From the NCBI GenBank assembly GCA_038320275.1, contig JBBQEB010000003.1, positions 108-64,107 of the forward strand: DNA of 64,000 bases. The letters run 5' to 3'. A program made the translations under genes and the position numbers. Below, piece by piece: positions 51,334 through 62,772 of the stretch; within the stretch, counting starts at the first letter, position 1; every line of letters begins with the position of its first letter. Origin of the DNA: Myxococcales bacterium (GTDB taxonomy: Bacteria; Myxococcota; Myxococcia; Myxococcales; Anaeromyxobacteraceae). The notes beneath the pieces are model-generated. The model made no database searches. It was not told where the DNA came from and worked only from the letters and a program-made list of their open reading frames with translations.

Positions 51334-52125
51334 ATGCGCTCAGGGCCAGGTCGAGGTTTCCGCCGCAGGCTCGCCGTGGCGCTTCTCGCCCTGGCGTTCC
51401 TCGCGCCAGCCAGACCCGCCGAGGCCCGGCGGCGGCTCCCTCGCAAGGCGCATCCGGAGGGCAGCCTCGTGCTCGAGGGCAGGCCGACGCGCGTTCGCTG
51501 GACCGATGGCGACACCTTCAAGGTCCTCGATGGCCCGTTCGGTGGACTGCTCACGCGGCTCGACGGTTACAACACGCTCGAGAGCTATGGGCCGGTGCAC
51601 CGCTGGGGACGGTGGTCGCCCCCCGAGCTGCTGGCCCTGGCGCAGGAGGCGACGCGCTTCGCCGCCGCGGGCTCCTGGCACTGCACCAGCGCGGGCGCCG
51701 CCGACCGCTACCACCGACTGCTGGTGCGCTGTCCGGATGCGGCGCGCGCGCTCGTGCGCACGGGGCTCGCGATGGTCTATGCCGTCGACGCGGAAGCGAG
51801 GCCCGAGCTGCTCGCCGCGCAGCGGGATGCGCAGCGTGAGGGGCGAGGCATGTGGGCGAAGGGCGTGCCGCGCGGCATCGTGACGAACCTTCACTCGATC
51901 GTCGAGAACGGGGGAGAGGGCGCCTACGACCGCGTCGCGGACACGCGCACCGGACGTGCGATCGCCCGCCCGCACGAGCACGCGTACGCGATGTGCTCGG
52001 AGGTGTGTCAGGCCACCGAGGGCGACACGAGCTGCATGGTGTACGTCCCCTTCGAGCGCCGCTACCGCAACAAGCCGCCCTGCCTGCAGGGATCACCGGC
52101 GCGGCGGAAGCGGCAGGAGCGCTGA
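51334..52125 (+). CDS. Thermonuclease (SNase) family secreted nuclease
   Basis: WTDGDTF, RLDGYNTLE, DRYHRLL, LVRTGLA, AQREGRGMW. Confidence 0.85.
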   Translation: MRSGPGRGFRRRLAVALLALAFLAPARPAEARRRLPRKAHPEGSLVLEGRPTRVRWTDGDTFKVLDGPFGGLLTRLDGYNTLESYGPVHRWGRWSPPELLALAQEATRFAAAGSWHCTSAGAADRYHRLLVRCPDAARALVRTGLAMVYAVDAEARPELLAAQRDAQREGRGMWAKGVPRGIVTNLHSIVENGGEGAYDRVADTRTGRAIARPHEHAYAMCSEVCQATEGDTSCMVYVPFERRYRNKPPCLQGSPARRKRQER

Positions 52126-52995
52126 CGTCGTGCGCAGCTTCTCCGCCCAGGCAGGATGTCGCGACAGCATCCGACGATCCATCCACGGGATGCTCACGCC
52201 GAGGAACAGCGCGGAGATGGCGACGGCGCCGACGCCGCTCCACCACCACGAAGGGGCCGCGGCGAGCCCGAAGAAGAAGACACCCCACCAGAAGAGCACC
52301 TCGCCGAAGTAGTTGGGGTGCCGCGACAGGCGCCAGAGGCCGCTGTCGAGCACCGCCTCCGGATCTCGCCGGGTCCGGGTGAAGGCGCGGAGCTGCCGGT
52401 CGGCGAGCCACTCCACCATGACGGCCGCCGAGGTCACCACCGCCGCGGCGAGGTCGAGCAGGCCAAGCCGGCGCCCGGCCAAGGCGAGCGCCGGGTAGAG
52501 CGGCAGGAGGCCCAGGAACACCCAGACCGTCGGCATGAGGTGGATCGAGACGAGGCTCGCGGGCCAGTAGAGCCGGCCCGTCCTGGCGCGGATCTCCCGG
52601 TATCGAAAGTCCTCGTCCTCGAGCCCGCGCCAGCGGAGGAGCTGGTTTCCGGTGAGTCGCGCGCCCCAGGCGATCACCAGCGCGAGCACGAGGAGCTGGC
52701 GCAGGCCCGGACCGCCAGGGCGGAGCGCTGCCCAGTAGAGCGCGATGGGGAGGGGGGCCACGCTCCAGTACGGGTCGTACACGCTGGAGTTGTCGTGACG
52801 GACGCTGAAGAGGAAGACGACGCCGGTGGCGGCGAGATCGGCCACCGCCGCGGCGAGGATGGGGTGCCGGCCGCGCTGCGTGAGGCCGGCCGCGAGCCCC
52901 GCCAGGAGCGCCGCGCCGTAAGCCAGCGCGAGGACCCCCCGGCCGCGCCTGCCGGCCGCATCAGCCTCCCCAGGTTCCGCGCTGCGCCCGCTCAT
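52093..52995 (-). CDS. DUF1295 / steroid 5-alpha-reductase-like membrane protein
   Basis: NSSVYDPYWS, EDFRY, WLADRQL, GLWRLSRHPNYFGE. Confidence 0.88.
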   Translation of the reverse strand: MSGRSAEPGEADAAGRRGRGVLALAYGAALLAGLAAGLTQRGRHPILAAAVADLAATGVVFLFSVRHDNSSVYDPYWSVAPLPIALYWAALRPGGPGLRQLLVLALVIAWGARLTGNQLLRWRGLEDEDFRYREIRARTGRLYWPASLVSIHLMPTVWVFLGLLPLYPALALAGRRLGLLDLAAAVVTSAAVMVEWLADRQLRAFTRTRRDPEAVLDSGLWRLSRHPNYFGEVLFWWGVFFFGLAAAPSWWWSGVGAVAISALFLGVSIPWMDRRMLSRHPAWAEKLRTTSALLPLPPRR

Positions 52996-53777
52996 CCGTA
53001 GAGCCCGCGCGTCGCTCGCCCCATGAGCCGCACGGACGCCCGGCGGGTGAGCACCCGCCCGAAGAGGAAGGCGGTGATCCTGTTGAGCGCGCCGGGGATG
53101 GTCACCGGGCCGTGCCCCAGCCGCCGCAGCGCGCGCTCCGCCACCGCGTCCGGCTCCATGATGGGGACGCTCCGCTTCGGCTTCGACGCGAGGTAGGCAG
53201 GGGTCCGCACCGGCCCGGCGCGGCAGGCGAGGACGTCCACCCCGCGCTCCGCCAGCTCCACCCAGAGCCCCTCCGCCAGCACGAGGTCGAAAGCTTTGGA
53301 CGCGGCGTAGGACGCCACGTAAGCGGTGCCCTGGCCTCCCGCCAAGGACGCCATGAGGAGGATTCCCCCGCGCCCGCGCGCCGCCAGCCGGGCGCCCAGG
53401 AGGTAGCAGAGCACCACCGGACCGCGGCAGTTCACCTCCACCACGCGCAGGTGAGCCTCGAGCGGCGCATCGAGGAAGGGGCCGATGGCCGAGGCAGCCG
53501 CGTTGTAGACGAGCAGGCCCAGGTCGAGCCCGTCCACGAGGGCTGCAGCGCGCCCGGCGAGATCGGGCGCGGCGAGGTCGAGCGCAGCCGTGCGCACCTC
53601 CACCCCGTGCTTCGCCCGCAGCCGGGCCGCCAGCGCCTCCAGTGGCCCCGCCCGGCGGGCGACGAGCAGGAGGTTCAGTCCGCGGCCGGCGAGGAGCCGC
53701 GCGAAGGACTCGCCCAGACCCTCGGAGGCACCGGCGACGAGCGCCCAGGGGCCATAGCGATCCGCGAACGCGCTCAC
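52992..53777 (-). CDS. Short-chain dehydrogenase/reductase (17beta-HSD/KAR-like)
   Basis: RYGPWALVAGASEGLG, YNAA, YAASKAF; GTG start overlaps the upstream stop. Confidence 0.9.
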   Translation of the reverse strand: MSAFADRYGPWALVAGASEGLGESFARLLAGRGLNLLLVARRAGPLEALAARLRAKHGVEVRTAALDLAAPDLAGRAAALVDGLDLGLLVYNAAASAIGPFLDAPLEAHLRVVEVNCRGPVVLCYLLGARLAARGRGGILLMASLAGGQGTAYVASYAASKAFDLVLAEGLWVELAERGVDVLACRAGPVRTPAYLASKPKRSVPIMEPDAVAERALRRLGHGPVTIPGALNRITAFLFGRVLTRRASVRLMGRATRGLYG

Positions 53778-54310
53778 GCCGCCTCCAGGCCGGCAGCGCC
53801 CGCCGCCGGCTCCGTGAACGGATGGTGCGAGCGCGTCACCCGCCAGAGCACGAGGAAGGGCACCAGCAGCCAGGCGGCGTTCGAACCGATCGTCGCCCAC
53901 GGGTTCGGCGCGGCATGCACACCCTTCACCTCGTCGAAGAGGATGATGAAGACGTTCGTGAACATCATCGCCGCCCACAGGATGCTCGGCGTCCGGATCC
54001 AGTCGCGTCCACGCGCGTAGGCGAACAGCGCCGCCGCGTAGAAGGGGCCGAAGACGCAAACGTCGAGCCAGATGGTGGCGCGGTACCAGGCCGGGCGGGC
54101 GAGCAGCAGCGGGTCCCAGGTGCGCTCGTACCAGTGGATGAGCCGCAGGGCCGCCGCCGGCGGCCACACTGGCTGGGTGAAGTGGGCCGGGTCAGCGATG
54201 ACGATCTGCTCCAGGCTCACCACGTAGGAGATGAAGAACAGGTTCACCGCGAAGAACGCCAGCAACGCCACGTCCAGCGGTCGGCGCGAGAGCGGGATGG
54301 GGCGGCGCAT
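53774..54310 (-). CDS. EXPERA/emopamil-binding-protein family (sterol isomerase-like) membrane protein
   Basis: Four TM helices; WYERTWDPLL, WLDVCVFGPFY, NAAWLLVPFL..WR. Confidence 0.75.
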   Translation of the reverse strand: MRRPIPLSRRPLDVALLAFFAVNLFFISYVVSLEQIVIADPAHFTQPVWPPAAALRLIHWYERTWDPLLLARPAWYRATIWLDVCVFGPFYAAALFAYARGRDWIRTPSILWAAMMFTNVFIILFDEVKGVHAAPNPWATIGSNAAWLLVPFLVLWRVTRSHHPFTEPAAGAAGLEAA

Positions 54311-54360
54311 GGGCGCCAGGGTAGCGCGGATCTGCGCACGAGGCGCGCACGATGGAGGAC

Positions 54361-55084
54361 GAGGCTCGGGGGGAGGACGAGGCTCAGGGAAGGGCGAGGC
54401 TCACGGGGAGAACGAGCGAAGCGACGCAGCCGCGAACTGAGGTTGAAGGGACGACGCGGCTCACACGGGAGAACGAGGCTCACGGGAGAACGAGCGAAGG
54501 GCCCGTGCGTCCTGAGGAAGCGGAGCGCCCGGCCTGCGGACGGAACCGCTCCGGGGTCGGACCGCGTGCACGGTCCGTGACGCGGCAATCCAGCCGGGCA
54601 GGCATCGCCGCCCTGCGCGGCACGAAGGCCGTGCCAGCGGGGCCGCGCGCTCCGGCCGCCGCCCGTCAGGAGCCAGCCCGGAAGGCCGTCGCGGAGAGAG
54701 GAAGGAGGCACGGGCCCGAAGCGATGCAGCCGCGAGCCGAGGCTCACGGGAGAACGAGGCTCACGGGAGAACGAGCGAAGGGCCCGTGCGTCCTGAGGAA
54801 GCGGAGCGCCCGGCCTGCGGACGGAACCGCTCCAGGGTCGGACCGCGTGCACGGTCCGTGACGCGGCAATCCAGCCGGGCAGGCATCGCCGCCCTGCGCG
54901 GCACGAAGGCCGTGCCAGCGGGGCCGCGCGCTCCTGCCGCCGTCCGTCAGGGCCAGCCCGGAAGGCCGTCGCGGAGCGACGAAGGAAGCACGGGCCCGAA
55001 GCGATGCAACGGCGAGCCGAGGGGCCAGCCCGGAAGGCCGTCGCGGAGCGAGGAAGGAAGCACGGGCCCGAAGCGGTGCAGCCG
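54361..55084. repeat. Composite tandem repeat: two ~281-bp units plus sub-repeats
   Basis: Units start at 54464 and 54745; an extra ~62-bp copy near 55022-55083; about seven GAGGCTCACGGGAGAAC-like 17-mers. Confidence 0.9.
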
Positions 55085-55136
55085 CCATGGAATGCGTTCC
55101 ACGAGCACAGGGGCGAGGAGTAAGGTCCCGCCCTCG

Positions 55137-56336
55137 ATGGCACCCGATCCCCGCCGCCTCCGCATTGCCTTCGTCATCGACATCTTCGATGGCGTGAAGA
55201 CCGGCGGCGTCATCTCCGCCCAGCGCTTCGTGGCCGGGCTGCGCGAGCGGCACGACGTGGAGGTCATCACCACCGGCCCCGCAGGGCCCGGGCGGACCGA
55301 GCTGCCCGCCTTGCATCCACCCATCTTCCGCAAGCTCATGCGGGAGATGGGCTTCGTGTTCGCCCGCCCCCGCCGCCAGGTGCTGGAGGCCGCCTTCCGG
55401 CGCGCCGACCTCGTGCACGTCCAGTTCCCCTTCCTGCTCGGGATGCGCGCGGCCGCGCTCGCTCGCCGGATGGGAAAGCCGCTCGTCGCCGGGTTCCACG
55501 TTCAGCCCGAGAACATGCTGCGAAACGTCGGGCTGCCCTCGGAAGGCGCGCTGGTGGAGGGGCTCTACCGGCTCTTTTGCGCGCGCCTCTTCGACCTCGC
55601 CGACGCGGTGGTCTGCCCGAGCGCCTTCGCCAGGGACGAGCTCGTGCGGCGCGGGCTCCGCGTCCCGGCAGAGGTCGTCTCGAACGGCATCGACCCCAGG
55701 TTCACGCCCGGGCCAGCCCCCGAGGTCGCGGAAACCGGCGGCGAGGTCCTCGTCCTCTCCGTCGGCCGGCTCGCCCGCGAGAAGAGGCACGACGTCCTCA
55801 TCGAGGGGATCCGCCGCTCGCGCCACGCCGGCCGGGTGAGGCTCGTGGTGACCGGGCGCGGGCCAGAGGAGGCGCGGGTACGCGCCCTCGCGGCGACCCT
55901 GCCACTCCCAGCCCAGGTCACCTTCGTCACCGACGACGAGCTGCTCCGGCTCCTGCGCGCGGCGGACCTCCTCGTCCACGCCTCCGAGGTGGAGCTGGAG
56001 GGGATGGCGGTGCTGGAGGCGATGGGCTGCGGGACGCCCGCGCTCGTCGCGGATGCTCCGGCCAGCGCTTCCCCCTCCCTGGCGGCGGGGCCAGACTTCC
56101 TCTTCCGCCCCGGCGACGCCGGCGACCTCGCCGCGAAGCTCGACCACCTCCTCGACGACCCCGCCGCGCTCCCCGCGGCGCGCGCGCGCTGCCTCGAGCG
56201 CGCGCCCGCCTTCGCGCTGTCCGCCTGCGTCGCGAAGCTGGAGGCGCTCTACCTGCGCGTCGCCTCCGGGGAGGGGGTCAGCCCCCCGTCGGCCGCTCGC
56301 GCCGGACGATCCAGAGCGCCGCCGGCAGGGCGGTGA
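55137..56336 (+). CDS. GT4 glycosyltransferase, cholesterol alpha-glucosyltransferase (HP0421/CapJ)-like
   Basis: FARP..L..AF..AD.VH..FPFLL, GFHVQPEN, CPSAF..EL, SNGIDPRF, VGR..EK, HASEVELEGMAVLEA; recalled similarity to H. pylori CGT, not computed. Confidence 0.75.
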   Translation: MAPDPRRLRIAFVIDIFDGVKTGGVISAQRFVAGLRERHDVEVITTGPAGPGRTELPALHPPIFRKLMREMGFVFARPRRQVLEAAFRRADLVHVQFPFLLGMRAAALARRMGKPLVAGFHVQPENMLRNVGLPSEGALVEGLYRLFCARLFDLADAVVCPSAFARDELVRRGLRVPAEVVSNGIDPRFTPGPAPEVAETGGEVLVLSVGRLAREKRHDVLIEGIRRSRHAGRVRLVVTGRGPEEARVRALAATLPLPAQVTFVTDDELLRLLRAADLLVHASEVELEGMAVLEAMGCGTPALVADAPASASPSLAAGPDFLFRPGDAGDLAAKLDHLLDDPAALPAARARCLERAPAFALSACVAKLEALYLRVASGEGVSPPSAARAGRSRAPPAGR

Positions 56337-58566
56337 AGTCGGCCAGCATGGCGAGGAGGAAGGCCGCCGAGGTCACGACGCCGAACTGGCGCAGCGGGGG
56401 GAAGCTCGAAGCGGCGAGCCCCAGGAATCCGGCCGCGTTGATGAGGGTCGCGAAGACGATCGGGCGCCCCGACACCCGCAGCGTGTGCCGCAGCGCCGGC
56501 TCGAGCGATCGCGCGCCCTCCCGCTCCGCCTCGCCCAGGTGGTGGAAGAAGTGGATCTGGTCGTTCTCGGTGGTGCCGAGCACCGTGGTGGCGATGAGGA
56601 TGGTGGCCACGTTCAGGCTCGCGCCCACGAGCCGCATGCCGAGGAAGGTCGCGAGGATGGCGAAGAGGGACGGGATCATCGCCATGAGCCGCGCGCTCGG
56701 GCTCCTGAAGACGAAGAGGAAGGCGACGAAGATGAGCGCCGCGGTGATGGCAAAGCTCTGCGTCAAGGTGGGGACGAGGCTCGCCCCCACCTTGGCCTGC
56801 ACCATCGACTCGCCCACCACCTGCATCGAGGCGCCGCGAAAGGCCGGGTCCCCCGCCACGGTGCGCTCCCACGCGTCGGAGAGAGCGCGCGCGATGGCCC
56901 GATAGCCGACTTCGTCCCCGCCTCCGCGGAAGGTGACGGTGACCTGAGCGTTGGAGAGCGTCCCCACGTCGAGGAAGCCGCGCAGCTCCGGCTCGGACAG
57001 CAAGAGCCCCTCCACGTCGGCGGCGAGCGCCGCGAAGACCTCGGGATCCTGGGTGAGGCGGTCGCCCTGCCCCGCCAGGTAGCCGCGCAGTCGAAGGAAG
57101 GTGGTGGGCCCGACCACCGCGTTCACCCCGGGCAGCGTCTCCACCGCCGTCGTGAAGCGGTCGAGACCCCGCAGCACCTCCGGGTCGGCGGCGGCTCCCG
57201 GCGGCGTCTTCACCCAGACGCGCGCCACGTCGAGCCCGGACACGTGCTCCCGGAAGAAGAGCATGTCGCGGTGGATGGCGAGCGAGGGGTCGACGTAATC
57301 GAGAGCGTCCACCCCGACGCGCATGGGGGCGAGCCGCCCCGGGATGCCGAGGAGCGCCGCCAACCCGGCGGCCGACAGGGCGAGCGCGCCGACGAGCAGC
57401 GGCCAGCGCAGCCTGTACGTCAGGCGGGGCAGCGCGTCGGCGGCGCGGTCGTAGAGAGCGCTCCGCACCTGCACCGCGCGCCGGGTGGGCGTCCGGAGCA
57501 CCTTCTGCAGCGCTGGAAAGAGCGTGAGCGCGACCACCCAGGCGATGGCGAGCCCTGCCGCGGTCCAGAGGCCCATCTCGCGCACCGGCCGGATCTTGGA
57601 GACGCCGAGCGCGCCGAAGCCCAGCACCGCCGCGACTGCGGAGGCGGTCACCGGCAGCGCCTTGTTGGCGAGCGCCCAGGCCTGGTGCGCGTCCGTCGAG
57701 GTGCCCTCCGGCTGGTCGACGAACCGCGAGTGCAGGTAGACCAGGGTGGCGAGCGTCGTCACGAGGATGGTGAGGGGCACCAGCGCGGAGACGACGGTGA
57801 AGGAGAAGCCGAGGAGCCGGCCCACCCCCACGCCCAGCGCCACCGACGCCCCGAGCGCGAGCAGGATGGCGAGGAGCGAGCGCGGGGAGCGGTAGAGGTA
57901 GAGCGACAGCACGACCACGAGGAGCCCGAAGAGCGGGAACGAACGCACCGACGCGCTGCCCGAGGCGTGCTCGATCCAGGACTCGACGTAGGGCGCGCCG
58001 ACCTTGCGAAGCTCGCGCAGGCTCCCCCGCGGCGCCCGCGCCAGGGCAGCGTCGATCTGCGCCAGCACCTCGTCGCGCTCGCGGGCGCCGTGCACGTCGA
58101 GCCCGACCGGGATTCCGTGGAAGTGGTCGCCGACGAGTCCCTGCCGCCGGAAGAAATCCGCCCCGGTGGCGAAGCGGCGAAAGGCGGCGGCGCCCTCCGG
58201 CGTGGGCGCAAAGCCGGGGTGAGCCCGGCGGTAGACGTCGAGCGCCGAGTAGGGATGCGCGCGCGCCACGCTCCGCAGCGCGGCCTCGACGCCCTCGAGG
58301 TCGCGCAGCACCTCCGGGCGCCAGGGGTCGTCCGCCTCGAGGAGCAGGATGACCAGCGCGCCCTCCGGGAAGACGGTCTGGAACTCGCGGGTCGCGACGA
58401 CATCGGGATCGGAGGGGACCACCAGACGGTCGATCCCGCTCTCGGAAGCGATGCGCGTCGCGAGCAGGGCGGCCGCCGGCACGAGCAGCGCGTAGGCCAC
58501 CAGGATGGGAAACCGGGCCGCGACGACGGCGCGGAAGACGCGCTCGAGCGGGGAGGGGGCGGGCAC
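56278..58566 (-). CDS. MMPL/RND lipid transporter (BstA-like)
   Basis: Two periplasmic-loop/TM-bundle repeats; LGTTENDQIHF, GRPIVFATLINAAGF, SFPPLRQFG; GTG start inferred. Confidence 0.85.
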   Translation of the reverse strand: MPAPSPLERVFRAVVAARFPILVAYALLVPAAALLATRIASESGIDRLVVPSDPDVVATREFQTVFPEGALVILLLEADDPWRPEVLRDLEGVEAALRSVARAHPYSALDVYRRAHPGFAPTPEGAAAFRRFATGADFFRRQGLVGDHFHGIPVGLDVHGARERDEVLAQIDAALARAPRGSLRELRKVGAPYVESWIEHASGSASVRSFPLFGLLVVVLSLYLYRSPRSLLAILLALGASVALGVGVGRLLGFSFTVVSALVPLTILVTTLATLVYLHSRFVDQPEGTSTDAHQAWALANKALPVTASAVAAVLGFGALGVSKIRPVREMGLWTAAGLAIAWVVALTLFPALQKVLRTPTRRAVQVRSALYDRAADALPRLTYRLRWPLLVGALALSAAGLAALLGIPGRLAPMRVGVDALDYVDPSLAIHRDMLFFREHVSGLDVARVWVKTPPGAAADPEVLRGLDRFTTAVETLPGVNAVVGPTTFLRLRGYLAGQGDRLTQDPEVFAALAADVEGLLLSEPELRGFLDVGTLSNAQVTVTFRGGGDEVGYRAIARALSDAWERTVAGDPAFRGASMQVVGESMVQAKVGASLVPTLTQSFAITAALIFVAFLFVFRSPSARLMAMIPSLFAILATFLGMRLVGASLNVATILIATTVLGTTENDQIHFFHHLGEAEREGARSLEPALRHTLRVSGRPIVFATLINAAGFLGLAASSFPPLRQFGVVTSAAFLLAMLADFTALPAALWIVRRERPTGG

Positions 58567-58630
58567 GGGCGAAGGGTATACCCGGCCACAGCTCGTTGCG
58601 GGAGAAGGGGCTCCGAGGCATGGTGCGCGG

Positions 58631-59503
58631 ATGACGACCGCGCTCGCCACCGCACTCGCAGCCCTGCTCGCCGCCGCGCCCGCCGCCGGCTCCTCGAAGC
58701 CGGCCAAGCCCGCCAAGGCCATCGTGCCCCAGCTCACGACCATCGTGGCCTGTGCTCCGGGGTACCCCGGCACCACCGCCGAGGCCCAGCCCGGCATGAA
58801 CGCCTTCGCCGCGGCCGTGTCGAAGGCCGTTGGCCTACCGCCCACCTCGGTGAAGGCGCTCTACGTCCCCAGCGAGAAAGCCGGGCTCGCCCGCATGCAG
58901 CAGCCGGACGTCGGGGTCGCGCTGGTGACGCTTCCGTTCTACGTGGCGCACGCGGCCGAGCTCCGGCTCCAGCCGCAGCTCACCGTCGAGAACGAGGGCC
59001 GCGGGCCCTCCGAGAGCTGGACCTTGGTGGCCCGGAAGGGCGCGTTGAAGGACGCGGCCGGGCTCGCCGGCTTTCGCATCGAGTCCATCGCTGGCTACGC
59101 GCCCGGGTTCGTGCGGGCCGCGCTGGCCGGCTGGGGCGCGGTGCCGAAGGAGGTCCCCATCGCGCCCACCCGCAAGGTGCTCACCTCGCTGCGCCAGGCG
59201 GCCGGGGGCGAGAAGGTGGCCGTGCTGCTCGACGCAGGCCAGGCAGCCTCGCTCGCGAGCCTGCCCTTCGCGGGCGAGCTGGAGGTGGTGGCGAAGTCGG
59301 AGCCGCTGCCAGCCGCCCTGGTGTGCGTCCTCACGCCGAGGATGAAGCCCTCCAAGTTCCGGCCGCTGAGCGGTGCGATGCTGCGCGTGGCGGGCGATCC
59401 CGAGGGGGCGGCCGCGCTGAAGGGCATCCGCATGGTGCGCTTCGCGCCCCTCGACGCCGCCGTGCACGCCTCGCTGAGCAAGGTCATGGAAGCCTCGCGT
59501 TGA
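58631..59503 (+). CDS. PhnD/phosphonate-binding-like periplasmic protein (BstB-like)
   Basis: Signal peptide; PBP2-like pattern (APGYPG, LVARKG, AVLLD..Q, VVAKSEPLP); no cognate ABC genes adjacent. Confidence 0.65.
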   Translation: MTTALATALAALLAAAPAAGSSKPAKPAKAIVPQLTTIVACAPGYPGTTAEAQPGMNAFAAAVSKAVGLPPTSVKALYVPSEKAGLARMQQPDVGVALVTLPFYVAHAAELRLQPQLTVENEGRGPSESWTLVARKGALKDAAGLAGFRIESIAGYAPGFVRAALAGWGAVPKEVPIAPTRKVLTSLRQAAGGEKVAVLLDAGQAASLASLPFAGELEVVAKSEPLPAALVCVLTPRMKPSKFRPLSGAMLRVAGDPEGAAALKGIRMVRFAPLDAAVHASLSKVMEASR

Positions 59504-60300
59504 ACGGGAGGTGGGTGGCCCCGCTGACCGCGCTCGCCCTGGCGCTGGGCTGCGCGCACGCGCTTCCGCCAGCGCGGCCCGAGCCCGCGGCCGCGGCTCC
59601 TGCCGCGGGAGGCAGCGCCTCGGAGCTCCTGGCCCGCGCCGAGGCGCGCTGGGCGGGGCGGCCCGATCCGGCCGCGGTGGGCGAGGCGGAGGAGCTGTAC
59701 CTGGCCGCGGCCCGGGCGGATCCACGGGCGACGGGGGGCCTCGCCGGAGCGGTGAAGGTGAAGGCCTGGCGCGCGGAACGCGAGCGCGACGACGCGCGCC
59801 GCGCTGCCCTGGCGGAGGGCGCAGTGGAGGCCGGGCAGTGGTGCGAGGCGCGAGCGCCTGCGAGCGCGGAGTGCGCCTATGCGCTCGCGATCGGGCTCGG
59901 CCTGCAGGCGCGGGAGCGGCGGGGAACGGCGCTCGATGGCCTGAAGCTCATGGTTGCGAAGCTCCGTCAGGCAGAGGCGGCCGACCCGAGGCTGGACCGG
60001 GCCGGGCCTGCGCGCGTGCTGGCTCAGGTGCTGGCGCAGGCGCCGGGCTGGCCGCTCGGGCCCGGCGACACGGACGCGGCGGTGGAGGCGGCACGCCGGG
60101 CCGTGTCGCTCTTCCCCGACCACCCGCCCAACCAGCTCGCGCTGGCGCTCGCGCTCCAGAAGAACGACGAGCCCGGCGTCGCGCGCGCGGCGGCGGAGCG
60201 CGCGGTGGCGCTCGCGCGGGCGGCCCGGGACGAGCCCGACGCTGCAGGGTGGATCGAGGAGGGGCTGCGGCTCGCCGGCGGAGGGACGGACGAGAGCTGA
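59500..60300 (+). CDS. TPR/TatT-like lipoprotein (BstC-like)
   Basis: LALGC lipobox; CAYALAIGLG, AGPARVL, APGWPLGPGD, AVSLFPDHPPNQL; TTG start overlaps the upstream stop. Confidence 0.7.
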   Translation: MNGRWVAPLTALALALGCAHALPPARPEPAAAAPAAGGSASELLARAEARWAGRPDPAAVGEAEELYLAAARADPRATGGLAGAVKVKAWRAERERDDARRAALAEGAVEAGQWCEARAPASAECAYALAIGLGLQARERRGTALDGLKLMVAKLRQAEAADPRLDRAGPARVLAQVLAQAPGWPLGPGDTDAAVEAARRAVSLFPDHPPNQLALALALQKNDEPGVARAAAERAVALARAARDEPDAAGWIEEGLRLAGGGTDES

Positions 60301-60313
60301 CAGCGGTGTTAGC

Positions 60314-61117
60314 TCAGCTCACGCTCTCCGCGCTGTAGCGCGCCAGGAGCCCCGACCGCACCGCGCCGCGGTGGATTCGGACGAAGAAGAGGCAGGCGAG
60401 CGCGATGTACCCAGCGGCGAGGGCCGCTCCGGCCCCGAGCGCGGCAAAGGAGATGGGCTGGCCCGCCACCGCTGCGCGCAGCCCCTCGAAGACGTACGAG
60501 GGCGGCAGCGCCCGACCGACGAGCTGCATCCAGCGCGGCAGCGTGGCGAGCGGGTAGAACACCCCGGCGAAGGGGGAGAGCAGTGCGGGGATGGGCCAGA
60601 CCAGCCACTCCGAGGCCGGCCCGAGCCGCAGCACGAGCGCGCTCGCGAAGACGCCGAGCGCGATGCCGAAGAGGAAGAGCACGGCGAGGAAGGGCGCGAG
60701 CCCGAAGCCAACGGTCGAGTAGGAGAGCCCGAAGACCCCCGCCGCGAGCGCGAGCATGACCCCGAGGCCGACCAGGCTCGTCACCACGCTGGAGGCGACC
60801 AGGCCGGCCAGGTATTCACCGATGGTGATCGGGCTCGCGAAGAGGTTGAACAGGTTCCGCGACCAGACGTCCTCGAAGAAAGCCATGGTCACGCCCTGCA
60901 TGACCCGGCCAAAGAAATCCCACAGCAGGATGGCGCCCAGGAGCGTGGGGACGAAGCGGACGGTGGACGAGGCGATCGCGTCCAGGTAGCGGGTGATGAA
61001 GCCCCACAGGACGACGTCGATGGCGACCCAGGCGAAGAGCGGCACCAGCCGCGCAGGGCTGCTGCGGAGCAGATAGGCCTGCCGCAGCAGGATGGCGCCG
61101 GTGCGTTTCAGTCGCAT
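60314..61117 (-). CDS. ABC-2 type transporter permease
   Basis: FFEDVWSRNLFNLFASP, SPFAGVFYPLATLP, LPPSYVFEGLR; six TM helices. Confidence 0.88.
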   Translation of the reverse strand: MRLKRTGAILLRQAYLLRSSPARLVPLFAWVAIDVVLWGFITRYLDAIASSTVRFVPTLLGAILLWDFFGRVMQGVTMAFFEDVWSRNLFNLFASPITIGEYLAGLVASSVVTSLVGLGVMLALAAGVFGLSYSTVGFGLAPFLAVLFLFGIALGVFASALVLRLGPASEWLVWPIPALLSPFAGVFYPLATLPRWMQLVGRALPPSYVFEGLRAAVAGQPISFAALGAGAALAAGYIALACLFFVRIHRGAVRSGLLARYSAESVS

Positions 61118-62772
61118 GTGCGGGCCGACCTCTCGCCCGACGGCGCCGGGCTCGGGTCGCGCTCGCTCACGCCGTACTTCCGCAGCTTCCCCTGAAGCGT
61201 GGTGGGCTTGAGGCCGAGGAGCGCGGCCGCGCCCTGCGGGCCGTACACTCTGCCGCCGCTCGCGGTCAGCGCGTGGCCGAGGAGCTGCCGCACCTGCTCG
61301 TCGAAGCGCCCCGGGGCGCCCTCCGCGCTCCGCTCCGCGCCGGGACCTCCGCCACCTCCAGCGCGGCCGCCACCCAGAGCTTCGCCGGGTTCGGCCCGCC
61401 CGCGGCCCGGGGAGGGGAGCACGAGCTCGTCTCCCGGCGAGAGGATGAGCGCTCTCTGCAGGTAGTTCTCCAGCTCGCGCACGTTCCCGGGCCATTCGAG
61501 CGCCTCCAGCAACGGCCATGCGTCCTCGGAGACCCGGGGCGGCCGCCGGTGCATGAGCGCAGCGTGCCGGGCGAGGAAGTAGGACGCGAGCGGCCGGATC
61601 TCCGCCCGCCGGGCCCGGAGGGGGGGAAGTTCCAGCGGAAAGACCGCCAGGCGATAGTACAGGTCCGAGCGAAACGTGCCCGCCGCGACCATCGCCTCGA
61701 GGTCGCGGTTCGTCGCCGCGACCACGCGAACGTCCACCTGGACGGAGCCCCCGCCGCCCACGCGCTGGATCTCGCGCTCCTGCAGGACGCGCAGGAGCCG
61801 CACCTGCACCGATGGGGGTGCATCGCCCACCTCGTCGAGGAAGAGGGTCCCTCCCTCGGCCTGCTCGAAGCGCCCTGAGCGCCTCCGCACCGCTCCGGTG
61901 AATGCGCCCTTCTCGTGCCCGAAGAGCTCGCTCTCGATGAGGCTGTCCGGCACCGCGCCCAGGTTCACCACCACGAAAGGCGCGCCGAACCGTGGAGACA
62001 GGTCGTGCACCATCCGTGCGAGCCCCTCCTTCCCGGTCCCCGTCTCGCCGCGGATGAGCACGGTCGTCATCGACGGCGCCACCAGCCGCACCCGCTCGAG
62101 GACCCCCTTCATGCTCGGGCCCTCCGCGACGTAGCGCGCGTCGCGCTTCATCTGCCGGAGCTCCTCCTTGAGGAGCGTGTTCTCGCGGTCGAGGAGGCGG
62201 TTCAGGCGATGCACCTCCTCCACCATCAAGCTGTTGTGGAGGGCGATCGCGACGAGGTGCGCCACCTGCCGCGCCACCTGGAAGCAGCACTCGAGGAGCC
62301 CTTGCCGTGGGGGATGCGCAATGTCGAGCGCGCCCAGCGCCTCGCCCTCGAAGATCAGCGGAAAGGAGACGAGCGAGCCGTAGCCCAGCTCCGCCAGCCG
62401 GGGCTCCTCGCGAAAGCGCGGCCGATCCGCCAGGATCGGGTCCACGATGGTCGGCCGCCGCTCGGCGAGGGCGAGGCCTGCCGCCGAGCCAGCCAGCTCG
62501 AAGGTCCTGCCCACCTCGGTGGCCGGGTGGCGGGGATCGGAGACGAGCGCCACTCTCGCGGTGCCGGGCTCCCCCTCGACGAGGCGGTGGATCGCGACGC
62601 GGGTCGTCCCGAACCGCCGGTTGAGAAGGCGGCCGGTGCGCTCGAGCACTGCCTGCAGGTCGACCGTGGAGAGGACGGCCTCGATGGCCTCCTCGACGAT
62701 GCGCTGGTGCGGATCGTGGGCGGGATGAAGGACGGGGACATCACTGGGGAGAATGGGCAGGGGGAGGGGCAT
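61108..62772 (-). CDS. GAF-AAA-HTH sigma-54 enhancer-binding protein (FhlA-like)
   Basis: GETGTGKE, ESELFGHEKGAFTGA, LFLDEVG, WPGNVREL, C-terminal HTH. Confidence 0.95.
   Translation of the reverse strand: MPLPLPILPSDVPVLHPAHDPHQRIVEEAIEAVLSTVDLQAVLERTGRLLNRRFGTTRVAIHRLVEGEPGTARVALVSDPRHPATEVGRTFELAGSAAGLALAERRPTIVDPILADRPRFREEPRLAELGYGSLVSFPLIFEGEALGALDIAHPPRQGLLECCFQVARQVAHLVAIALHNSLMVEEVHRLNRLLDRENTLLKEELRQMKRDARYVAEGPSMKGVLERVRLVAPSMTTVLIRGETGTGKEGLARMVHDLSPRFGAPFVVVNLGAVPDSLIESELFGHEKGAFTGAVRRRSGRFEQAEGGTLFLDEVGDAPPSVQVRLLRVLQEREIQRVGGGGSVQVDVRVVAATNRDLEAMVAAGTFRSDLYYRLAVFPLELPPLRARRAEIRPLASYFLARHAALMHRRPPRVSEDAWPLLEALEWPGNVRELENYLQRALILSPGDELVLPSPGRGRAEPGEALGGGRAGGGGGPGAERSAEGAPGRFDEQVRQLLGHALTASGGRVYGPQGAAALLGLKPTTLQGKLRKYGVSERDPSPAPSGERSARTCD

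Follow-up and report, generated by a model that had tools for sequence, protein, structure and literature searches.

Three adjacent genes in the genome of a Myxococcales bacterium of the Anaeromyxobacteraceae probably encode a Bst-type, three-component envelope shuttle whose cargo would be a hopanoid- or sterol-like lipid not made here via a known cyclase. The genes lie in a 64,000-nucleotide window (the whole stretch of DNA that was analysed, from contig JBBQEB010000003.1) of G000, a 4.10-Mb metagenome-assembled genome (MAG) of 343 contigs that is 90.7% complete. They encode an RND/MMPL protein (P0001), a PhnD-fold protein resembling BstB (P0002) and a lipoprotein resembling BstC (P0003). In the mechanism that we propose, a proton-driven, HAE3-like inner-membrane RND pump would work with a BstB-type carrier, soluble in the periplasm, and with a BstC-type lipoprotein of the outer membrane; the lipid handed between both membranes would be bulky and mostly apolar, with a single polar head. 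The cargo, which we infer together with the transport direction, would be a polycyclic isoprenoid, either hopanoid-like or sterol-like. The reference for the two soluble components is BstB/BstC of Methylococcus capsulatus (PDB 7T1M/7T1S; NF045601/NF045602; Zhai et al. eLife 2024, PMC10942540). Among the papers that we found naming BstA, BstB or BstC, none described homologues of BstB/BstC linked to hopanoid clusters or a form linked to an EXPERA-family membrane protein, and these two variants of a known Bst-type system are what is new here.

The window has a G+C content of 72%, and its genes were called with a codon-usage gene caller together with reading frames and G+C by codon position, which gave the following layout for the triad:

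56278-58566, minus strand: RND/MMPL gene P0001, GTG start, 762 aa
58567-58630, no strand: divergent spacer, 64 bp
58631-59503, plus strand: PhnD-fold (BstB-like) gene P0002, 290 aa, Sec signal peptide
59500-60300, plus strand: BstC-like lipoprotein gene P0003, 266 aa, TTG start

These calls bear out the preliminary description of an RND/MMPL gene transcribed divergently from a PhnD-fold gene that is translationally coupled to a lipoprotein gene, given that the TTG start of P0003 overlaps the upstream TGA (TTGA). As that description also held, no phosphonate ABC partner adjoins the PhnD-like gene, whose neighbours are the RND and lipoprotein genes. The divergent triad occurs as a conserved unit in Anaeromyxobacteraceae, Methylomirabilota and Acidobacteriota, and its recurrence in three phyla is far beyond chance and supports the shuttle reading. 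The related loci came from MAGs of Anaeromyxobacteraceae, Methylomirabilota, Sulfomarinibacteraceae and Thermoanaerobaculales, and all of them kept the divergent layout except one (L002), where BstB- and BstC-like genes stand without an adjacent RND. Identity of P0001 to the RNDs of the conserved triads is 50-74% throughout, and 50-71% in the loci just named. Database searches returned 519 and 305 homologues, labelled merely "TPR", "hypothetical" or "PhnD/SsuA family".

The periplasmic protein P0002 is a distant but real homologue of BstB. Its sole NCBIfam match was BstB (NF045601; 56.1 bits, E 3e-15), below the equivalog cut-off of 350, and a phmmer search against all PDB sequences gave BstB 7T1M (E 2e-12) as the sole meaningful match. 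A family profile built from 33 members reached 7T1M at E 2e-25 over residues 6-256 of 261; the next match was ArrX at E 4e-3, and no PhnD was reached even at E 10. The AF2 model of P0002 (pLDDT 91.5) retrieved 7T1M at Foldseek rank 1 with a TM of 0.80. It would be possible to read P0002 as a phosphonate or oxyanion binding protein of an uptake system, with the RND and lipoprotein as unrelated neighbours, given that Pfam PF12974 (Phosphonate-bd) matches it at 40 bits (cut-off 27) and that Foldseek also returns ArrX, PtxB and PhnD at lower rank. We regard this reading as highly improbable, since there is no ABC permease or ATPase partner, the family profile favors BstB over any PhnD, the cavity positions are apolar and the three genes are kept together across phyla.

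The cavity evidence comes from residues reported for the M. capsulatus proteins (PMC10942540), which we mapped by alignment after all 22 BstB and 28 BstC residue numbers had been checked against the chains. By this alignment-based mapping, 17 of the 19 positions of the BstB lobe-A cavity are apolar in P0002, in line with a predicted hydrophobic cavity, and the polar head-group triad Glu118/Tyr120/Asn192 corresponds to E128/W130/D201. A polar anion pocket had been named beforehand as a feature that would speak against a lipid carrier; the residue mapping of P0002 showed none, nor was there a signal of an anion-binding PhnD. Among 24 BstB-like sequences, the E-W-D triad occurs in every member of the window's subfamily, whereas the true BstB type has E-Y-N. 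E-W-D holds alike in loci linked to hopanoid genes, to EXPERA and to TonB-dependent receptors; hopanoid-linked and EXPERA-linked proteins cannot be told apart by their cavity positions, and several residues are smaller than in BstB. These patterns suggest that the window's whole subfamily may carry one cargo shape, different from that of 4-methylsterols.

P0003 gave a parallel picture of true but distant homology to BstC. BstC (NF045602) was its top NCBIfam match at 81.1 bits (E 9e-23), again under the equivalog cut-off of 350; BstC 7T1S was matched among PDB sequences at E 2e-13, and the AF2 model (pLDDT 90.1) retrieved 7T1S at Foldseek ranks 1-2 with a TM of 0.68. The protein has a lipobox, LALGC, whose Cys18 is invariant in 33 homologues. 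An alternative start exists at a GTG at 59515, but the TTG start is preferred because the Arg of the n-region is conserved in homologues. Glu86 of BstC corresponds to E93 in P0003, 7 of 15 cavity-1 (CA1) residues are identical, and the APxWPxGxGD entrance loop is invariant (A181-P182...W184-P185-G187-G189-D190; APGWPLGPGD in P0003, common with BstC). From its modeled all-alpha fold, P0003 is predicted to be a BstC-like TPR-ring outer-membrane lipoprotein. It shares the TPR-ring, lipid-binding fold superfamily with TatT/TPAT proteins (Tp0956; Es_TatT, PDB 8G52/8G53) but is much closer to BstC (Foldseek E 4e-8 versus 7e-4).

Together, P0002 and P0003 resemble the M. capsulatus pair in combining a bilobed, type-2 periplasmic-binding-protein fold with an all-alpha TPR-ring lipoprotein, in having adjacent genes paired with an RND transporter, in keeping BstC Glu86 and the entrance loop, and, by alignment, in mostly apolar cavity positions. 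They differ in an identity of 22-27%, in scores of 56 and 81 bits versus 350, in the E-W-D triad in place of E-Y-N and in several smaller cavity residues. Both the best and specific matches to BstB/BstC by sequence, profile and fold, and the mostly apolar cavity positions with a polar anchor of the same type, together with the BstC glutamate and loop, argue for the shuttle.

The RND protein does not fit the known system as closely. P0001 matched Pfam MMPL at 67 bits (cut-off 20.5) and Sterol-sensing PF12349 at 31.6 bits (cut-off 22.3). Its top NCBIfam match was HAE3 (TIGR00921), at 147 bits and under that model's cut-off of 352; the HpnN models TIGR03480 and NF052374 gave 72.1 and 35.2 bits against cut-offs of 752 and 1100, and the BstA model NF045600 was not among its matches in the NCBIfam search at E up to 0.1. 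A control RND, which adjoins BstB/BstC-type genes in another Myxococcota family (L030), scored 1218.7 bits on BstA. In the RND tree, the branch between BstA-type proteins and the P0001 clade measures about 5 changes per column. P0001 belongs to a clade with 95% support whose members come from loci linked to hopanoid genes, from loci linked to EXPERA and from one locus (L031) with neither link; that P0001 shares this clade with hopanoid-linked RNDs supports the shuttle reading. By sequence, P0001 matched no solved structure at E 1e-3. Like BstA (NF045600) and HpnN (TIGR03480, NF052374; PDB 5KHS), it belongs among the inner-membrane proteins of the RND/MMPL superfamily, and the RNDs of its relatives are, like HpnN, genetically tied to hopanoid biosynthesis. 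It differs from both in length (~760 versus ~860-900 aa), in grouping with HAE3 and in its Pfam sterol-sensing match. We therefore classify P0001, as predicted from these matches, as an inner-membrane RND/MMPL transporter that is HAE3-like with a sterol-sensing-type domain and is neither BstA nor HpnN. The proposal that the RND is the counterpart of BstA thus fails, given the lack of a BstA match and the very long branch to true BstA-type RNDs. Of the Bst composition suggested earlier, the PhnD-fold protein and the lipoprotein stand as homologues of BstB and BstC, while the RND does not stand as BstA and both scores are far under the 350-bit cut-offs. Likewise, the suggested orthology has been replaced by a computed homology for BstB and BstC that does not reach equivalog level.

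The cargo question turns on what the genome can synthesize. A whole-genome domain search of G000 found neither the N nor the C domain of SQHop_cyclase, and tblastn with proteins of relatives found no squalene-hopene cyclase (SHC), HpnG, HpnH, CrtI-like oxidase or CruF-like gene; the cyclase domain was absent also from five other triad-bearing genomes. The sole SQS_PSY gene of the genome lies within a carotenoid cluster, between phytoene desaturase, lycopene cyclase and glycosyltransferase genes:

L033 (G000 contig C175), 2-5297: carotenoid cluster with EryCIII-like glycosyltransferase, lycopene cyclase, phytoene desaturase, phytoene synthase and a 192-aa protein without family match

From this context we assign the SQS_PSY gene to the carotenoid cluster and predict that G000 has no squalene synthase. 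An assembly gap is an unlikely reason for the missing cyclase because the triad sits on a 75.6-kb contig that carries no hpn genes, because a sister genome with the same layout also has no cyclase, and because near-complete genomes of the EXPERA type have neither SHC nor SQS. Three such genomes, G170 (98% complete), G216 (100%) and G293 (99%), contain no SQS_PSY gene and would therefore make neither squalene nor phytoene via known synthases.

These results largely refute the idea that the triad transports the cell's own sterols as in M. capsulatus. As a BstABC orthologue, the system would export such sterols to the outer membrane, and it does have the same composition of an RND, a PhnD-fold protein and a TatT/BstC-fold lipoprotein, with BstB and BstC as best matches and with nearby EXPERA, SDR (short-chain dehydrogenase/reductase) and DUF1295 proteins that resemble sterol-modifying enzyme families. 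We consider this very unlikely in view of the absence of an SQHop_cyclase domain or a tblastn-detectable SHC homologue, the placement of the only SQS_PSY gene among carotenoid genes, the scores of 56 and 81 bits versus cut-offs of 350, and the lack of a BstA match while another Myxococcota family does have true BstA and BstC types (1219 and 225-348 bits). Neither osc, sdmA nor sdmB was found near the triad (smo, sdmA and sdmB were not searched genome-wide). Moreover, unlike the M. capsulatus system, the orthologous modules of relatives lie in hopanoid, not sterol, clusters.

The hopanoid linkage in relatives bears on the cargo class. A match to the BstC family was present in 232 of 401 Myxococcota genomes, none over the cut-off; one family (f12) has the true BstC type at 225-348 bits, and scores in the window's own family are about 60-96 bits. 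When the squalene-cyclase domain was scanned in the same 401 genomes, the window's family had a cyclase in 16 of 66 genomes, and all 16 of those had a BstC-like gene. The distance between the BstC-like gene and the squalene-hopene cyclase gene is 3-12 kb in 15 genomes from two Myxococcota families, and at the loci that we read the BstC-like gene is in or beside hopanoid operons (SHC, HpnH, HpnA). An operon of G024, from the same genus, encodes, in this order, BstB-like and BstC-like proteins, HpnA (467 bits, cut-off 368), HpnH (528 bits, cut-off 225), Idi2, a CrtI-like oxidase, an HpnC/D-like squalene synthase, SHC, a CruF-like protein and HpnG. The cyclase of G135 scored 666 bits on TIGR01507 (cut-off 431), and this genome, like G032, G329, G387, G379 (Anaeromyxobacter oryzae), G194 and G363, adds an orthologous RND that is 61-71% identical to P0001. 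The five relatives that were checked, of which four have SHC and one is of the EXPERA type, gave no canonical HpnN, the best score being 133 bits versus 752. The placement of the BstC-like gene with the cyclase and within hopanoid operons, and the lack of canonical HpnN in the SHC-positive relatives checked, both support the shuttle reading, and a hopanoid-like ring lipid is the best-supported reading of its ancestral or common cargo in this lineage.

Two further features of the hopanoid-linked loci were observed. In loci of this kind from two families, a conserved Omp85-family outer-membrane gene separates the BstB/BstC-like pair from the RND or SHC gene (L010 9045-10316, also L019, L026 and L027); the window does not contain it. 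A gene for a CruF-like "carotenoid biosynthesis protein" (PF04240; L010 14359-15201, L008 4770-5558) lies between SHC and HpnG, next to a CrtI-family oxidase gene, and the two could point to modified squalene or hopanoid chemistry.

A hopanoid-linked ancestry raises the question of whether the triad is now a relic, a hopanoid transporter left without a present cargo after the loss of hopanoid genes. The sister genome G024 of the same genus has the BstB/BstC-like pair inside its hpn operon and G000 lacks those hopanoid genes, as this would predict, but all three triad genes are intact with a strong coding signal, and the same state is found in many cyclase-less genomes, where linkage to an EXPERA trio despite rearranged gene order argues for selection. 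A relic therefore seems unlikely to us. That trio and a glycosyltransferase gene lie on the RND side of the triad:

55137-56336, plus strand: GT4 glycosyltransferase (Pfam Glycos_transf_1 and Glyco_transf_4)
53774-54310, minus strand: EXPERA-family membrane protein, TMEM97/sigma-2-receptor-like (Pfam EBP/EXPERA, E 7e-12)
52992-53777, minus strand: SDR (Pfam adh_short, 102 bits; our own gene call)
52093-52995, minus strand: DUF1295 membrane protein (Pfam DUF1295, E 1e-45)

The operon runs from EXPERA first to DUF1295 last, with the SDR gene coupled to EXPERA by a 4-bp overlap. In related loci the SDR gene always lies between the EXPERA gene and DUF1295, the conserved third gene. The trio is adjacent to or at most 9 kb from the BstC-like gene in G396 (same genus), G381, G377, G293, G216 and G170 in several gene orders, and the persistence of the linkage through such reshuffling points to a shared function. 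In G396, a 454-aa gene without a Pfam match lies between EXPERA and the RND gene (L001 3301-4665); it has no counterpart in the window. The GT4 gene is convergent with the RND gene, overlaps its 3' end and adjoins the RND in L006, L016, L017, L018 and L031; it gave weak, generic lipid- and sugar-GT4 matches only in NCBIfam, the best at 72 bits. Within the family, 2 of 13 cyclase-positive genomes carry EXPERA, as do 18 of 23 genomes that are cyclase-negative but have the BstC-like gene and 1 of 19 genomes without a BstC-like gene; the five BstC-like-positive genomes with neither cyclase nor EXPERA are just 81-91% complete. The presence of the BstC-like gene in every SHC-positive genome of the family, together with EXPERA mostly in the SHC-negative ones that have it, is consistent with the same shuttle in two settings, as are the pocket residues shared by hopanoid-linked and EXPERA-linked proteins.

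The sole PDB match of the EXPERA protein was the sigma-2 receptor TMEM97 (7M93; E 1.6e-8 over ~76 residues), with the ligand-binding Asp of the DPLL motif kept, and EBP was not matched in that search. In animals, TMEM97 works with NPC1 in cholesterol trafficking. The bacterial locus is alike in that an EXPERA protein is genetically paired with an RND having a sterol-sensing-type domain; it differs in being an operon with SDR and DUF1295 genes and in the short, distant match. The DUF1295 protein matched nothing in PDB or NCBIfam, and we take DUF1295 to be a member of the Pfam steroid-reductase/ICMT (steroid/polyprenol-reductase) clan. The EXPERA, SDR, DUF1295 and GT4 proteins probably bind or remodel, and perhaps glycosylate, the lipid that the shuttle would carry.

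How a cyclase-less cell would come by such a lipid is a separate question. We tentatively propose that cyclase-less Anaeromyxobacteraceae lost hopanoid synthesis, kept the shuttle and coupled it to the TMEM97-like protein, the SDR, the steroid-reductase-like protein and the GT4; they may scavenge, remodel, perhaps glycosylate and place in their envelope the sterols or hopanoids of other soil organisms, although we hold this to be well short of probable. At Methylomirabilota and Thermoanaerobaculales loci (L003 2960-6475, L005 3071-6674), the RND gene is followed on the same strand by genes for a TonB-dependent receptor, whose N-domain is CarboxypepD_reg, and for a DLH/AXE1-like alpha/beta hydrolase. 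This arrangement hints at uptake of an esterified outside substrate and would fit scavenging, but the receptor and esterase are not present at the window locus.

Alternatively, the same shuttle could carry an endogenous lipid that is not cyclised, either a carotenoid or a saturated polyprenol or dolichol-like lipid produced with the SDR and DUF1295 proteins, a route that would parallel eukaryotic DHRSX and SRD5A3. The genome offers some ground for this in the carotenoid cluster (CrtB, CrtI, lycopene cyclase and glycosyltransferase) on C175, in the presumed clan membership of DUF1295, and in a distant BstC-like gene beside polyprenyl synthase and Idi2 genes on C140. A carotenoid is excluded as the common cargo given that neither a phytoene nor a squalene synthase is encoded in G170, G216 or G293, which are near-complete, and both the pocket residues common to hopanoid-linked and EXPERA-linked proteins and the resemblance of the EXPERA protein to a sterol-binding receptor weigh against a non-cyclised lipid more generally. 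We consider such a cargo doubtful. The second BstC-like gene itself (58 bits on NF045602) lies at the start of contig C140 (L012, 146-9654), followed by genes for polyprenyl synthase and type-2 isopentenyl diphosphate isomerase (Idi2), with a LolA-like protein and two FtsX/MacB-type permeases encoded on the opposite strand. We considered this gene as the partner of a hidden hpn cluster and rejected it: its product is 31% identical to P0003 over 90 residues, and no SHC lies beside it.

Several points weigh against the reading of the triad as a shuttle for a hopanoid- or sterol-like lipid. P0001 is outside both the BstA and HpnN families. With the MAG 90.7% complete, the absence of a cyclase is unproven for this genome alone. 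The co-occurrence figures are counts without a test, and they overstate the support given that related genomes are not independent. Nothing relevant was found in the literature searched on lipid roles of bacterial EXPERA or DUF1295, and an SDR together with a steroid-reductase-like enzyme could act on polyprenols instead of ring lipids. Finally, TatT/TPAT lipoproteins, which partner with TRAP transporters, bind long-chain fatty acids, so that proteins of the TatT/BstC fold can have fatty acids and not sterols as ligands (PMC11713862), and the fold alone does not fix the ligand.

If the reading of a ring-lipid shuttle holds, it bears on two processes. HpnN is the only component known to us for the passage of hopanoids across the periplasm to the outer membrane, and the BstB- and BstC-like genes inside the hopanoid operons of the four hopanoid-producing genomes checked, none with a canonical HpnN, are candidates for the carrier in the periplasm and the acceptor in the outer membrane that are still missing; cultured Anaeromyxobacter species have some of these candidates, where they are testable. 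In its cyclase-less form, the system may allow free-living soil bacteria to acquire and remodel ring lipids that they cannot make. Such scavenging, if true, would be the free-living counterpart of host-sterol hijacking, with a bacterial TMEM97/NPC1-like pairing. In either case, a BstB/BstC-type annotation should not be equated with "sterol".

Minor observations concern the spacer and the surrounding DNA. The gap between the divergent genes was given as 65 bp in the preliminary description and measures 64 bp; the palindrome reported in it, GGGTATACCC, is at 58574-58583 as stated and is unique. We rejected it as an operator given that perfect 10-bp palindromes occur at chance-level frequency (200 in the window versus 149 in shuffles; ~0.17 expected per 64 bp) and that GGGTATACCC is absent from 12 of 12 orthologous spacers. 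A scan of the 64-bp spacer for a sigma-70 consensus and a terminator found none. Control by the neighbouring GAF/sigma-54 activator was likewise rejected, since the spacer has no good GG-N10-GC site and the activator is not conserved beside the triad. A TAnCCT-like hexamer near the RND start appeared loosely conserved, judged by eye only.

Beyond P0003, an ABC-2 permease gene without an adjacent ATPase directly follows the gene of the GAF-domain sigma-54 activator (60314-62772, minus strand, overlap at 61108-61117); this pair is not kept beside the triad in the other loci read. On the other side, the 830-bp gap between the EXPERA operon and GT4 (54354-55094), in which no open reading frame was called, contains two 281-bp direct repeat units that start at 54464 and 54745 and are 99% identical over 207 nt. 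The gap also carries a third copy of the 71-nt tail and short tandem modules of 17-18 nt.

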